A stretch of DNA of 32,000 nucleotides from Psychrobacter sp. HD31. GTDB taxonomy: Bacteria > Pseudomonadota > Gammaproteobacteria > Pseudomonadales > Moraxellaceae. The translations under genes were made by a program, and so were the position numbers. The stretch covers positions 480,001-512,000 of the forward strand of contig NZ_CP142525.1 of assembly GCF_051097895.1 (NCBI RefSeq), written 5' to 3'. The notes beneath the pieces were generated by a model. It was not told the DNA's origin, did no database searches, and worked only from the letters and a program-made list of their open reading frames with translations. How positions within the stretch are numbered: the first letter of the stretch is position 1; the number at the start of each line of letters is the position of its first letter. This document shows positions 9,846 through 21,569 of this stretch, piece after piece.

Positions 9846-9880
9846 CAAAAAAAACGGATTAAATGTTAATCCGTTTTTTA
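9846..9880 (-). terminator. Rho-independent terminator ending the thi gene string (downstream of thiC)
   Basis: The minus strand reads aaaaaacggattaa-cat-ttaatccgtttttttt. A 12-bp perfect stem (9851-9862 with 9866-9877) and an 8-T run begin 18 nt after the thiC stop. Confidence 0.8.
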
Positions 9881-9897
9881 TTATTTACATTATTTGA

Positions 9898-11874
9898 TTA
9901 AACTTCATGATATAACTGCTTGCCTTCATCATGAAACTTTTGTTTCATTTGTTCCATACCTGCTTTTACTTCATCAACCGTACCTTCGCCAACTTGGGCA
10001 ACCAGCTCTGTTTCCACTTGTTTAAATTCCAGCCCTTCGGCATAGTCACGAACATTTTGCGTAATCTTCATTGAGCAGAATTTTGGACCACACATTGAGC
10101 AGAAATGAGCCGATTTATGAGCGTCTTTTGGTAAGGTTTCATCGTGAAACTCGCGAGCGGTATCAGGGTCTAATGCTAAGTTAAACTGGTCTTCCCAGCG
10201 GAACTCAAAACGTGCTTTTGACAATGCATTATCACGAGCTTGAGCGGCAGGATGTCCTTTCGCTAGATCAGCTGCATGAGCTGCAATCTTATAGGTGATG
10301 ATGCCGTCTTTGACGTCTTTCTTATTAGGTAAGCCTAAGTGCTCTTTTGGCGTGACATAACATAACATTGCCGTACCATACCAACCAATCATCGCTGCGC
10401 CAATCGCTGAGGTGATGTGGTCATATCCTGGTGCAATGTCTGTTGTCAAAGGACCTAAGGTATAAAACGGTGCCTCGTGGCAAGTTTCCAGTTGCAAGTC
10501 CATATTTTCTTTAATTCGGTTCATAGCAACGTGTCCAGGTCCTTCAATCATCACTTGCACATCATGTTTCCATGCAATTTCAGTCAGCTCACCAAGCGTA
10601 CGCAGCTCACCAAACTGAGCATCATCATTGGCATCTTGAATACAGCCAGGGCGTAAACCATCACCTAAGCTAAATGCCACATCATATTGTTTCATGATTT
10701 CACAAATTTCTTCAAAATGAGTGTATAAGAAGTTTTCTTTATGATGAGCCAGACACCACTGTGCCATGATAGAACCACCACGACTCACAATACCTGTTAA
10801 GCGTTTAGCAGTGGTAGGAACATAGCGAAGAAGGACGCCTGCATGAATGGTAAAATAATCAACCCCTTGTTCTGCTTGCTCAATCAAAGTGTCTTTAAAA
10901 ATTTCCCAAGTTAGATCTTCAGCCACCCCATCAACTTTTTCTAATGCTTGATAAATTGGCACAGTCCCAATGGGTACAGGGGAGTTACGAATAATCCATT
11001 CTCGAGTTTCATGAATATGTTTACCAGTAGACAAATCCATGATGGTATCAGCGCCCCAACGGGTTGCCCATGTCATTTTTGCCACTTCTTCATCAATACT
11101 CGACCCTAATGCAGAGTTACCAATATTGGCATTAATTTTTACCAAAAAATTTCGACCGATAATCATCGGCTCACTTTCTGGGTGGTTGATGTTATTTGGA
11201 ATAATGGCACGTCCTGCGGCCACTTCACTACGCACAAACTCAGGAGTGATGACTCTAGGTGTATTTGCACCAAAATTATCCCCTGCGTGCTGTCGCATAT
11301 CGGTCAGCTCATGTTGTTTTTGGGTTTCACGAATCGCAATATATTCCATCTCTGGGGTAATGATGCCTTGTTTGGCATACCACATTTGCGTTACATTGCC
11401 CGTAGAGCTGCCTGTAGAATTGTTGATATCTTTGGCACGGCGAGGCTTATCGATATGACCAAAACGTAAGTTTGCGGTCTTAATATCACTGGCGCGCTCA
11501 CGTCCATAGTTACTGGACAGCCCTGTCAGTTGTTCAGTATCACCACGTTCCTCAATCCATTGTTGACGCAGCTTTGGCAGACCTTTGGTTAAGTCGATTT
11601 CTACGTTTGGGTCGGTATACACCCCTGAGGTATCATAAACGTAAAATGGAGGGTTGTTTTCTCCTTCTTTTTTACCCAAACCTCCTGCTGGGGTATCCGT
11701 TAGCGTAATTTCACGCATCGGTACTTGAATGTCTGGACGAGAGCCTTGGATATAAACCTTACGTGACGCTGGCAGATTTCGGGTGAGGTCACGGGCTTCT
11801 TCTTCGTAACGCTCATCGGTTGGCTTGCGATGGGCTGGGGTTTTTAGAGCGTTGTTTTGAGTAGTATTTGACAT
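9898..11874 (-). CDS. thiC: Phosphomethylpyrimidine synthase
   Basis: Conserved along its whole length, including the C-terminal Fe-S motif [11 protein letters not shown]. Start taken at MSNTTQNN (ATG 11874-11872) with an AAGGAA SD. Confidence 0.95.
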
Positions 11875-11942
11875 TTTGTTTCCTTTTATCAAGTTCTCAA
11901 GTTTATTTTTTGGGTTAATTCTTACAGAAAATATTAATTCGT

Positions 11943-12341
11943 CTATTTATCTAATCGTTGAAACTGACCAAGTGCTTTTCGACCAACTTCGGGGAGACGC
12001 ACAACACTATGATTGTTAAAGCCCACCAAGACGACTTGTGCATCAGCAATTAATTCGTTTGCTTCATTCATGACTTCATAATTTAAGGAAAAACCAGCAC
12101 CTCGGATTTCATCGATATAAATGATAAATTTTAGAACCTCTCCACGAAACGTCTCTTTGCGATAATTCACATTCAAGGATTTGACGATTAAACCAACGCC
12201 ATAAAAGTTAAATTCTTTTTCGCCCAAGGCATCAAAGAATCTGAGTCGTGCTTCGTGAAGCATGGTGATTAACTTATCGTGTGCTAAGTGATGACCATAA
12301 TTAATGTGGTCGATTGTAACGGTGAGTTCTGTTGTAAACAT
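11943..12341 (-). CDS. Hotdog-fold (4HBT/YbgC-like) thioesterase
   Basis: 132 aa. The N-terminus [36 protein letters not shown] has the pattern typical of 4HBT-class thioesterases (early D and H, long central helix). The later strands resemble the family. Called by eye only. Confidence 0.6.
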
Positions 12342-12384
12342 TAAGTTTTGTTGCCCTTTTATTTGTTAACTTTCGCTGGTTTAT

Positions 12385-12444
12385 TTAACTGGCTTTTATT
12401 TCACTAGTCTTAACTTAACTAGCCTTGATTTAACTGGTCTTGAT
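12385..12444. repeat. Four degenerate tandem copies of a 15-nt unit spanning the thiD stop codon
   Basis: ttaactggcttttat / ttcactagtcttaac / ttaactagccttgat / ttaactggtcttgat. The last two units encode the ThiD C-terminus (..YQDQLNQG*). Confidence 0.8.
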
Positions 12445-20343: not shown

Positions 20344-21252
20344 TTATCCTGCCCACAAAGACTGATACTGCTCATCAGTTAACGTGACAATATCAATCTC
20401 TGCCAACATCTGGCGTAGCTCTTGCCATTTAGCTTGATGAGATTCAATAGGATGAATGAATCTGCTCAAGGTGTCATCAATGATTGCATTCATCAGCTCA
20501 TCGGCTTTGGTATCGCTATATTGATAATATAACTCTCGTACAGTTTCTGGTTCGGCTCGGCAAAGCTCAATCATGTCATTAGTTACCTTGATGAAACTAT
20601 CAATGGCTTGCTTTTTGTCTTGATAAATCTCATCGGTGGTGATGATGTCCAGTGCAGAAAAGTTTGCAAATGGGGATGCGTGTTGGTCAATAAAGGTAAA
20701 GCTCATGCCTGCTTGCGTTGCCTCTACACCTTCAAAGTTATAAAAGCACAACCAAGCACCATCTAAGCTTGGGTCATTTTGCATATTGGTGATGTGATAA
20801 AAGTCGGCTTGTACAAACTCTACGTTGTTTTGTGACAGTTCGATGCCCTGTTGCTTTGCATAGCGGTCTAATACTTCAAAGCCTATGCGGTTGGTTTTTT
20901 CTTCGGCGGCTGGCGTGCAAATACGGATGGTTTGTTGCTCTTTTAGCTTTTGTAACACTTGCTCGCTGTTACCACGCATGAGGATACCGCCATCGGTTTC
21001 AAAGAAACAGCCTAAAGAACGCAAGTTGGGAGCATAATGCTCAAATAAATGTAAGGGTTCATTGGTGTGTAAGTCAATAGTCCGGTTATTTAACTCGGCA
21101 AAACCATCATAATGGTCATCAGGCTCAATGATGGTAAGCTCAACTCCTGCTTGTTGGTATGCCCCTGTTTTTATACCAGCGATGAAGGGAAGGTGGTCTG
21201 GGTTTAAGAACCATTCAAGGGTTAAGGTGAGTTTGGTTGGTGCGTTTGTCAT
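20344..21252 (-). CDS. NMT1/THI5-like protein with no signal peptide; first gene after the TPP riboswitch
   Basis: The N-terminus LTLTLEWFLNPDHLPFIAGIKTGAYQQAGVELTIIEPDD aligns without gaps to yeast Thi5p [39 protein letters not shown] (recalled from memory). There is no hydrophobic leader or lipobox. AAGGAAA SD. Confidence 0.8.
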   Translation of the reverse strand: MTNAPTKLTLTLEWFLNPDHLPFIAGIKTGAYQQAGVELTIIEPDDHYDGFAELNNRTIDLHTNEPLHLFEHYAPNLRSLGCFFETDGGILMRGNSEQVLQKLKEQQTIRICTPAAEEKTNRIGFEVLDRYAKQQGIELSQNNVEFVQADFYHITNMQNDPSLDGAWLCFYNFEGVEATQAGMSFTFIDQHASPFANFSALDIITTDEIYQDKKQAIDSFIKVTNDMIELCRAEPETVRELYYQYSDTKADELMNAIIDDTLSRFIHPIESHQAKWQELRQMLAEIDIVTLTDEQYQSLWAG

Positions 21253-21254
21253 AG

Positions 21255-21295
21255 TGTTTCCTTTATTTTAAATATTTTATTTAAATCGGAAACAA
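21255..21295 (-). promoter_or_regulatory. Putative SD-sequestering hairpin (expression platform of the TPP riboswitch)
   Basis: On the minus-strand RNA, UGUUUCC (21294-21288) is perfectly complementary to the SD GGAAACA (21261-21255), with a ~26-nt A/U loop. The same UUGUUUCC is also complementary to GGAAACAA in the 3' strand of aptamer P1 (21428-21421). Confidence 0.5.
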
Positions 21296-21419
21296 TTAGA
21301 CTAACAAACAAGACAAAATCAACATCCATAAATACGCAAAACGCCATCAACCTAGGTGGATAGGTGACGGTTATTTAATGCAAGTATAAAAAATGGGTGT
21401 TGTTTTATAAGATATCACG

Positions 21420-21509
21420 CTTGTTTCCTACGTCAGTGCTAACTGCTTCAGGTTATACGGGTATTTCTCAGCGATGACAATTTGCATAATGTCAAAGCAC
21501 CCCGACAAG
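21420..21509 (-). promoter_or_regulatory. TPP riboswitch (THI element) aptamer
   Basis: The minus strand reads CUUGUCGGGGUGCUUUGACAUUAUGCAAAUUGUCAUCGCUGAGAAAUACCCGUAUAACCUGAAGCAGUUAGCACUGACGUAGGAAACAAG. It carries the conserved GGGGUGC, GCUGAGAAAUACCCGUAU.ACCUGA and GCGUAGGRA cores (compare E. coli thiM). P1 is CUUGU with ACAAG, and there is a variable P3 hairpin. Confidence 0.92.
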
Positions 21510-21539
21510 GTTATTAGTTGTAAAAAGTGCGCTTATCTT

Positions 21540-21569
21540 ATACTAAACAGATGACTGTTTTCAAGACAA
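21540..21569 (-). promoter_or_regulatory. Candidate sigma70 promoter for the riboswitch-led transcript
   Basis: On the minus strand: TTGTCT (21569-21564), an 18-nt spacer, then TAGTAT (21545-21540). This is ~30 nt upstream of the aptamer. Pattern match only. Confidence 0.3.

Follow-up and report, generated by a model that had tools for sequence, protein, structure and literature searches.

The DNA analysed here is a 32,000-nt window of the Psychrobacter sp. HD31 genome (NCBI RefSeq assembly GCF_051097895.1, contig NZ_CP142525.1, positions 480,001 to 512,000 of the forward strand; coordinates below are those of the window unless a contig is named), in which twelve co-directional genes, seven thi genes interleaved with five others, lie behind a thiamine pyrophosphate (TPP) riboswitch. 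The gene order had been proposed in a first-pass annotation made from the sequence alone, and all twelve minus-strand genes were reproduced in that order, at 9898-21252, by open reading frame (ORF) listing and by Pfam and NCBIfam scans. Comparison with near-identical and with more distant relatives leads us to read the locus, with a probability of about 0.7, as a mosaic operon assembled in steps and not as a coherent twelve-enzyme pathway.

All genes of the array are on the minus strand and are given here from the riboswitch onwards. The first, the riboswitch's own gene, encodes a 302-aa NMT1/THI5-like protein (20344-21252; Pfam NMT1, E 4.5e-18), and is followed by a short-chain dehydrogenase/reductase (SDR) gene, oarX (coding sequence (CDS) 19303-20157; Pfam adh_short_C2, NCBIfam NF006393), by thiO for glycine oxidase (18086-19210; Pfam DAO, with TIGR02352 ThiO at 214 bits, under its cutoff of 250.8), and by a gene for a 200-aa DJ-1/PfpI protein (17248-17850; Pfam DJ-1_PfpI, E 2.2e-23) with an SVCTGS nucleophile motif. 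Next come thiS (16970-17170; TIGR01683, 63.5 bits against a cutoff of 37.45), thiG (16121-16921; Pfam ThiG, E 3.9e-98), an AT-rich orphan of 282 aa without a Pfam or NCBIfam family (CDS 15241-16089), thiE (14602-15213; NF000734, 303 bits against a cutoff of 252), and a gene for a ThiF/MoeZ-type adenylyltransferase, here called thiF (13442-14623; Pfam ThiF, E 1.5e-67, with an NCBIfam MoeZ-type match over residues 39-386). The array ends with thiD (12419-13312; TIGR00097, 347 bits against a cutoff of 205), a gene for a putative hotdog acyl-CoA thioesterase (CDS 11943-12341; Pfam 4HBT_2, E 5e-13), and thiC (9898-11874, with its ATG at 11874; NF006763, 1074.8 bits), which is without a riboswitch of its own. 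Two starts need qualification: that of thiF is probably near 14605 (the gene call in L085, one of the relatives described below, is 374 aa long), and that of thiD is ambiguous between in-frame ATG codons at 13273-13312.

An Rfam scan returned one TPP riboswitch in the window, at 21408-21514 on the minus strand, as had been claimed, and a permissive scan of 9600-21800 (E <= 10) added no second THI-box, the spacer 5' of thiC included; the remainder were sub-threshold chance matches (an L20 leader at the terminator, and matches resembling small nucleolar RNAs). The terminator proposed to close the array was found at 9849-9879, as a bidirectional intrinsic terminator with a 14-bp stem and T-runs on both strands (folding z = -5.0). 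The internal spacers had been described as free of hairpins followed by T-runs, and this was borne out, all internal minus-strand candidates lying within coding regions; terminator-like matches numbered 17, against 10.8 +/- 3.1 expected. Several gaps between genes are very short, at 27-31 nt around the orphan and 48-77 nt elsewhere, with longer spacers between the NMT1-like gene and the SDR gene (186 nt), between thiO and the DJ-1 gene (235 nt), and between thiF and thiD (about 130-170 nt). Matches to a sigma-70-like promoter were as frequent as in shuffled sequence (39 vs 38.2), and because of this the promoter scan is uninformative about internal promoters.

Close relatives of the locus were found as three metagenome (Logan) contigs, L084, L085 and L086, drawn from two samples (SRR33677536 and SRR33677572; L085 and L086 come from different ones) and showing 95-97% DNA identity to the window. 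L084 was aligned to positions 21448-20343 and 19241-18044 (about 96.6% identity) and has the order riboswitch, NMT1-like gene, 62-nt gap, thiO; the oarX segment, 19242-20342 on the minus strand, is replaced in this 97% identical contig by 30 unrelated nt. L085 and L086 (95-96% identity) both have the order DJ-1, thiS, thiG, thiE, thiF, thiD, thiC. The orphan segment (15214-16124, minus strand) is skipped in both, leaving a thiG-thiE gap of about 10 nt, and the hotdog segment (11895-12443, minus strand) gives way in both to 89 unrelated nt, with thiD followed directly by thiC. No internal TPP riboswitch was found in L085 or L086, upstream of thiC or elsewhere. Sequences at least 97% identical to oarX and at least 90% identical to the hotdog gene were present on other short Logan contigs (three further members in the 90% cluster of the hotdog gene), and these two genes are thus polymorphic in the population.

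An assembly artefact was considered as the source of these indels and ruled out, as the junctions are clean and the same shorter allele occurs in two independent samples. The three insertion junctions showed neither target duplications nor terminal inverted repeats. Tandem repeats of short units (7-15 nt, 3-4 copies) are present at 12380-12444, 19223-19260, 20250-20297 and 17893-17913, in spacers bordering variable or inserted genes, and may be sites of illegitimate recombination; one of them enters the 3' end of thiD and alters its C-terminus relative to L085.

The nearest species-representative genome, that of Psychrobacter sp. DM4 (ThiG 83% and ThiO 65% identical to the window proteins), provided the outgroup. 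Its thi cluster consists of thiO-thiS-thiG-thiE-thiF (thiOSGEF) only, and no TPP riboswitch was found in the 384-nt region upstream of it (L001 8334-8717), even at E <= 10. Since thiOSGEF has none in DM4, Psychrobacter thiazole genes do not need a riboswitch, and the thiazole branch of that strain may lie outside riboswitch control. Seven-gene operons of Arenicella, Porticoccaceae, Haliea and Alteromonadaceae share with HD31 the order thiO-thiS-thiG-thiE-thiF-thiD and a single TPP motif at the head, but in them thiC comes first, with the riboswitch, whereas in HD31 thiC comes last and the riboswitch accompanies the NMT1-like gene. Because DM4 and the other Gammaproteobacteria are arranged differently, the order with the NMT1-like gene first and thiC last is specific to the HD31 lineage.

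On the preferred reading the locus was assembled in three steps. Comparison with relatives shows the starting units: the NMT1-like gene as a riboswitch-led single-gene unit, as it is in other Psychrobacter, and a separate, riboswitch-free thiOSGEF cluster, as in DM4. The HD31 lineage then joined these two units with the DJ-1 gene, thiD and thiC, yielding a nine-gene core of riboswitch, NMT1-like gene, thiO, DJ-1 gene, thiS, thiG, thiE, thiF, thiD and thiC. Beyond this core, HD31 has in its spacers three more single-gene segments by which it differs from its 95-97% identical relatives, namely oarX, the orphan and the hotdog gene.

The first-pass annotation had suggested, by guilt by association, that each of the five extra genes might serve an undescribed step of thiamine metabolism. 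For the orphan, hotdog and DJ-1 genes the comparative evidence went against this suggestion, and they have no support beyond their position. The orphan has a GC content of 29.7%, against 39% for the window and 43-47% for its neighbours, and is the sole member of its 90% cluster within a wider family of 116 representatives. Its low GC, its single-member cluster and its absence from the outgroup suggest a recent insertion. No match was obtained in Pfam, NCBIfam, PHROGs or PADLOC, and no sequence match in the PDB; DUF4253 (PF14062) was not matched by the window protein and was matched weakly by 7 of 27 family members (best E 2.7e-4). The AlphaFold2 (AF2) model is confident (pLDDT 92, pTM 0.91) and had no structural neighbour in the PDB or BFVD (best E > 0.8), so the model may represent a fold not yet solved; residues invariant in the family are Q63, NGYF (189-192) and D195. 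Nothing was found to support a function as enzyme, immunity protein or phage protein. Its distant homologues, hypothetical accessory genes on Acinetobacter replicons, stand by themselves and have no thi linkage. With only 31 nt separating it from thiG and 27 nt from thiE, the HD31 gene must be transcribed with its neighbours, and it is probably a hitch-hiker, expressed since thiE-thiC expression reads through it and functionally unrelated to them. At its junction with thiE (15214-15240, compared with L085 1905-1914) the insertion has removed the GAGGA Shine-Dalgarno (SD) sequence that the relatives have 5' of thiE; the HD31 sequence there is TATTAAGCTACTTATG, in which no SD is obvious. The last codons of thiG differ as well (FWFD* against FWFED*).

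The hotdog protein scored under the cutoffs of the NCBIfam YbgC/FadM models and had weak PDB matches (E 1e-4); a DHINYGH motif, picked out by eye, may be its catalytic site. A homologue was found in 0 of 170 thi- or oarX-centred loci, and distant homologues on Aquicella and Legionella geestiana plasmids are not thi-linked. The DJ-1 protein is closest in the PDB to the uncharacterised 3MGK (E 3e-55) and to isonitrile hydratase (E 2e-20), its SVCTGS motif aligning with their catalytic-Cys motif. Its gene is kept upstream of thiS in L085 and L086. Because the DM4 gene lies elsewhere, between nth and metK and far from the thi genes, the thiamine linkage of the DJ-1 gene is lineage-specific.

The case of the SDR gene is different. 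Its link to TPP riboswitches and thi genes recurs in other organisms, as guilt by association would have it; it is no new lead, as the protein belongs to a published family, OarX (PMC11223231). Rodionov et al. singled the gene out in 2002, and Oliveira-Filho, Rodionov and Hanson returned to it in 2024; the later work strengthened the association with thiamin and excluded five candidate substrates in C. glutamicum; oarX clusters occasionally with acyl-CoA synthetase genes and in some genomes with thiOSGF, and the published idea is that OarX acts on a CoA thioester (PMC11223231). The sequence of the HD31 protein agrees with this known, thiamin-associated family: NF006393 was matched at 362.7 bits against a cutoff of 292, FabG models scored far lower (124-139 bits against about 297), Pfam adh_short_C2 was matched at E 7.7e-49, and the catalytic YxxxK (Y190-x3-K194) is invariant.

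Homologues of 58-77% identity lie in operons of a TPP riboswitch, thiM, thiE, thiD and the SDR gene. A scan with an alignment of SDR homologues gave 80 metagenome loci. In 45 of them the SDR gene directly follows a co-oriented thiD, mostly in the order thiM-thiE-thiD-SDR, where the stop of one gene overlaps the start of the next. Rfam was run on 18 loci, and each has a same-strand TPP riboswitch that scores above the gathering threshold, located before thiM in 15 and directly before the SDR gene in 3. In L127 (1778-2679), L132 (559-1483) and L137 (168-1060) a TPP riboswitch leads straight into oarX, and no thi gene intervenes. Pasteurella atlantica (L090 9682-13064) has a TPP riboswitch (66.5 bits) followed by the SDR gene (a 71% homologue), thiM, thiD and thiE, an order that differs from the thiM-thiE-thiD-oarX of most metagenome loci. 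Like the published OarX, then, the HD31 protein is an SDR distinct from FabG, of a family whose genes follow TPP riboswitches and neighbour thiM, thiD and thiE; unlike it, the HD31 gene sits between the NMT1-like gene and thiO and is strain-variable, and the protein has N-terminal NKTPI-like repeats (20089-20157) and an extra loop, a 16-residue insertion at about 19900-19950, both absent from 16 of 16 aligned homologues. A relative with 97% identity is shorter by 5 residues, perhaps the equivalent of one repeat unit. OarX probably has some role in thiamin salvage or repair. The presence of oarX together with the hotdog gene in HD31, a single observation, is suggestive in light of the CoA-thioester idea, and a weaker possibility is that OarX and the thioesterase act jointly on a CoA-activated thiamine breakdown product.

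For the NMT1-like gene, guilt by association is upheld, as the pairing of riboswitch and gene is conserved even where the gene stands alone. In the loci L081 and L083 each homologue (71-74% protein identity) forms a unit by itself, with a TPP aptamer 120-190 nt upstream (48.2 and 49.5 bits, E 4e-8 and 4e-7). Both aptamers score under the gathering threshold because of insertions in helix P3. The link is not universal, since the homologue of Moraxella macacae (L082) has no TPP riboswitch, either at the gathering threshold or by regular expression. An ordinary tandem glycine riboswitch lies upstream of gcvT in the same Moraxella macacae contig (L082 14533-14875), a few kb from the NMT1-like gene.

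The fold of the NMT1-like protein places it among thiamin- and pyrimidine-binding proteins. The AF2 model (pLDDT 92.8) was searched with Foldseek, and the top matches were, in order, 4NMY (a thiamin-bound binding protein), C. albicans Thi5, ThiY and S. cerevisiae Thi5, with query-normalised TM-scores of 0.70-0.75, all of them thiamin- or pyrimidine-binding proteins; against the yeast structures 4ESX and 4H6D, E was about 1e-16 to 1e-17 and the query-normalised TM-scores 0.70-0.73. Across 24 homologues 52-74% identical, 83 of about 300 positions are invariant, many of them His, Glu, Asp and Cys. Hallmarks of yeast THI5p are His66, which is consumed in the reaction, and Lys62, which forms the imine with pyridoxal phosphate (PLP) (PMC10848271). 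In an ungapped profile alignment, Thi5 H66 corresponds to H68, invariant in the 24 homologues, and Thi5 K62 falls, with no gap, on an invariant N64, so the PLP-binding Lys is absent; the CCCXC region of Thi5 is not conserved in the HD31 protein either. The likeness to yeast THI5p (PDB 4H65, 4H67, 4H6D, 4ESX) thus comprises the fold, the His66 equivalent, a cytoplasmic location and a link to thiamine regulation, and the differences are Asn in place of Lys62, a CCCXC region that is not conserved and a profile E of only about 1e-7.

ThiY and other thiamin-binding periplasmic proteins (3IX1, 4NMY) are the closest or equal-closest matches by fold and by profile, and it could therefore be asked whether the HD31 protein is a ThiY-like binding component of a hydroxymethylpyrimidine (HMP)/thiamine ATP-binding cassette (ABC) importer encoded elsewhere. 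The PGAP/GenBank name, "ABC transporter substrate-binding protein", agrees with such a role, as do a best structural match that is the thiamin-bound binding protein 4NMY and a third place for ThiY. The protein, however, has no signal peptide or lipobox: it begins MTNAPTKLTLTLEWF, and strand beta-1 already occupies residues 6-11. Hydrophobic leaders or signal peptides are present, by contrast, in the thi-linked NMT1 proteins from Rhodobacterales and from Marinomonas (L016, L023, L005, L052). Nor do ABC transporter genes (thiX, thiZ, or genes for a permease or ATPase) adjoin the gene in any of the five loci inspected, the window and L081-L084, and the pattern of invariant His, Glu, Asp and Cys is enzyme-like. 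We regard an importer component as very unlikely.

Given the Asn in place of Lys62, the unconserved CCCXC region, the lack of a signal peptide and the lack of adjoining transporter genes, the protein, to judge from its sequence, is neither a canonical Thi5 nor a ThiY. Its most likely place is in the pyrimidine branch, as a cytoplasmic enzyme or carrier that shares ancestry with both. A bolder proposal, made tentatively and with the odds set clearly against it, is that the homologues in Psychrobacter, Moraxella, Acinetobacter and Campylobacterota form an uncharacterised cytoplasmic branch of the Thi5/ThiY fold in which the His is kept and the PLP Lys is gone, under TPP riboswitch control in Psychrobacter. 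The NMT1-like protein is a well-supported member of the thiamine regulon with unusual active-site residues, and it is the most interesting lead at this locus.

The closest known layout is that of the Legionella pneumophila thi operon (lpp1522-1527), in which the first gene after the TPP riboswitch is likewise NMT1/THI5-like (PMC5338858). The likeness lies in the succession of TPP riboswitch, NMT1/THI5-like gene (Lpg1565, LpThi5) and co-directional thi genes, and is one of layout. Unlike the setting of the Legionella protein, HD31 also encodes ThiC, and the HD31 clade lacks the Thi5 lysine. For the Legionella leader a terminator and an action of CsrA have been proposed, whereas the HD31 platform hides the SD. 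Paxhia et al. are said to have reported LpThi5 (Lpg1565), in 2021, as a synthase of HMP phosphate (HMP-P).

The HD31 riboswitch itself is a full-length RF00059 match (59.5 bits against a gathering score of 54.3, model positions 1-105), and the 3' half of its aptamer is 94-95% identical to the L081 and L083 aptamers. A sigma-70-like promoter candidate lies about 20 nt 5' of the aptamer (21535-21564, minus strand; TTGAAA, 18-nt spacer, TAAGAT); it is a consensus match only, at 9 of 12 positions. The predicted expression platform occupies 21250-21295 on the minus strand and consists of an anti-SD, UUGUUUCC (21288-21295), a loop, and the SD AAAGGAAACA with the AUG (21250-21264). In the minimum-free-energy fold of the leader, with the aptamer formed, the SD (21255-21264) pairs with this anti-SD, and the GGAAACA heptamer of the SD recurs in the P1-forming 3' strand of the aptamer, GUAGGAAACAAGCG (21418-21431). 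Pairing of the anti-SD with the aptamer 3' strand GGAAACAAG was calculated at -10.3 kcal/mol in HD31, against -9.3 with the SD; the corresponding values are -8.1 and -8.1 in L081, and -7.0 and -7.0 in L083. The aptamer strand, the anti-SD and the SD are conserved in the three leaders, and the intervening loops differ.

With TPP bound, helix P1 would retain GGAAACAAG, and the freed anti-SD would pair with the GGAAACA of the SD and block translation of the NMT1-like gene; without TPP, the anti-SD would pair with the aptamer strand and leave the SD exposed. From its sequence, the riboswitch thus appears to act mainly on translation of the first gene. The same anti-SD/anti-anti-SD logic, with the aptamer 3' strand competing with the SD, operates in E. 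coli thiM-type TPP riboswitches, and is predicted here. Unlike those, the HD31 leader also has a weak terminator-like hairpin followed by UUUUG (21335-21370, minus strand), the core of a long helix in the minimum-free-energy fold, which is present in L084 and not alignable in L081 or L083, and which could contribute a degree of transcriptional control in those two leaders, HD31 and L084. Since the platform looks translational and hides the SD, TPP could reach the other eleven genes only by polarity, Rho-dependent termination or this weak hairpin, with an effect that may be partial or nil.

These observations bear directly on the proposal that the array is one TPP-repressed twelve-gene transcript, in which each of the five extra genes carries out an undescribed salvage, precursor-supply or damage-control step. 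The genes are indeed co-directional behind one riboswitch, several of the gaps between them are very short (27-31 and 48-77 nt), no internal hairpin with a T-run interrupts them, a TPP link recurs in other organisms for both OarX and the NMT1-like gene, and a hotdog thioesterase would fit the published CoA-thioester idea for OarX. Against this, 3 of the 5 extra genes are missing from 95-97% identical relatives; the orphan is AT-rich and alone in its 90% cluster, with distant homologues in thi-free accessory regions; the hotdog gene lacks a homologue in the 170 loci, and the DJ-1 gene lies elsewhere in DM4; and the expression platform targets the SD of the first gene. Taken in this full form, the proposal is improbable.

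It is also conceivable that the riboswitch governs the NMT1-like gene only, and that internal promoters, lying perhaps in the 186-, 92- or 235-nt spacers, drive thiO to thiC, so that the array would comprise two or three transcription units on one strand. The SD-sequestering platform accords with this, as do the 384-nt upstream region, without a riboswitch, that thiOSGEF has to itself in DM4, and the existence of the NMT1-like gene as a single-gene unit in L081, L082 and L083. So does a long imperfect hairpin without a U-tract directly 3' of the thiO stop (17975-18082, minus strand; -40 kcal/mol, z = -7.4), after which the 235-nt spacer leads to the DJ-1 gene. The hairpin was missed by the inverted-repeat search because it is imperfect; no shuffled sequence folds as well, it occurs once in the window and is identical in the close relatives, and the contigs L084, L085 and L086 all terminate within it. 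Possible explanations are a signal for 3'-end formation or RNA processing, or a remnant of the event by which the DJ-1 gene joined the operon. The gap between the NMT1-like gene and thiO, however, is just 62 nt in L084, no promoter-like site rises above chance, no intrinsic terminator follows the NMT1-like gene, and translational TPP riboswitches of E. coli cause Rho-dependent polarity. A division into separate units is on balance unlikely, without being far-fetched.

The stepwise mosaic, which we prefer, has to be set against several points that weigh the other way. The relatives compared are short metagenome contigs and not complete genomes. Whether the indels are gains in HD31 or losses in the relatives can be said with confidence for the orphan alone, on account of its AT-richness and its absence from the outgroup, and both oarX and the hotdog gene occur in other members of the population. 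The recurrence of oarX in thi operons of several lineages argues against all variable genes being passengers. The switch model is built on thermodynamic predictions and three sequences, from a leader that also has a terminator-like hairpin, and the operon boundaries and the TPP responsiveness of genes 2-12 are likewise deduced.

The array is flanked by plus-strand genes, obg and an AT-rich ORF on one side and proB and hemE on the other. The AT-rich ORF, just 3' of obg, encodes 172 aa (9124-9642, plus strand; GC 29.7%) and had no match in Pfam, NCBIfam, PHROGs or PADLOC; its own strong terminator-like hairpin (9763-9794) comes next and stands back to back with the terminator of the thi array.

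That one species-level population harbours this thi operon both in a form with three of its genes and in a form lacking them makes operon membership alone a poor guide to function. Passengers can be told from conserved thiamine partners, here the NMT1-like protein and OarX, only when near-identical and distant relatives are compared together. At this locus it could also be tested whether an unregulated thiOSGEF cluster, once fused behind a translational riboswitch, comes under TPP control. The natural pair of oarX-plus and oarX-minus strains, with the thioesterase gene alongside, could help to find the substrate of OarX. Tests of the NMT1-like clade in a thiC mutant might uncover another bacterial way of making HMP-P, or a salvage step not yet described; were the proposed cytoplasmic branch real, it would mean an oxygen-tolerant, ThiC-independent route to the thiamine pyrimidine by chemistry other than that of yeast, or a new intracellular enzyme of pyrimidine salvage.

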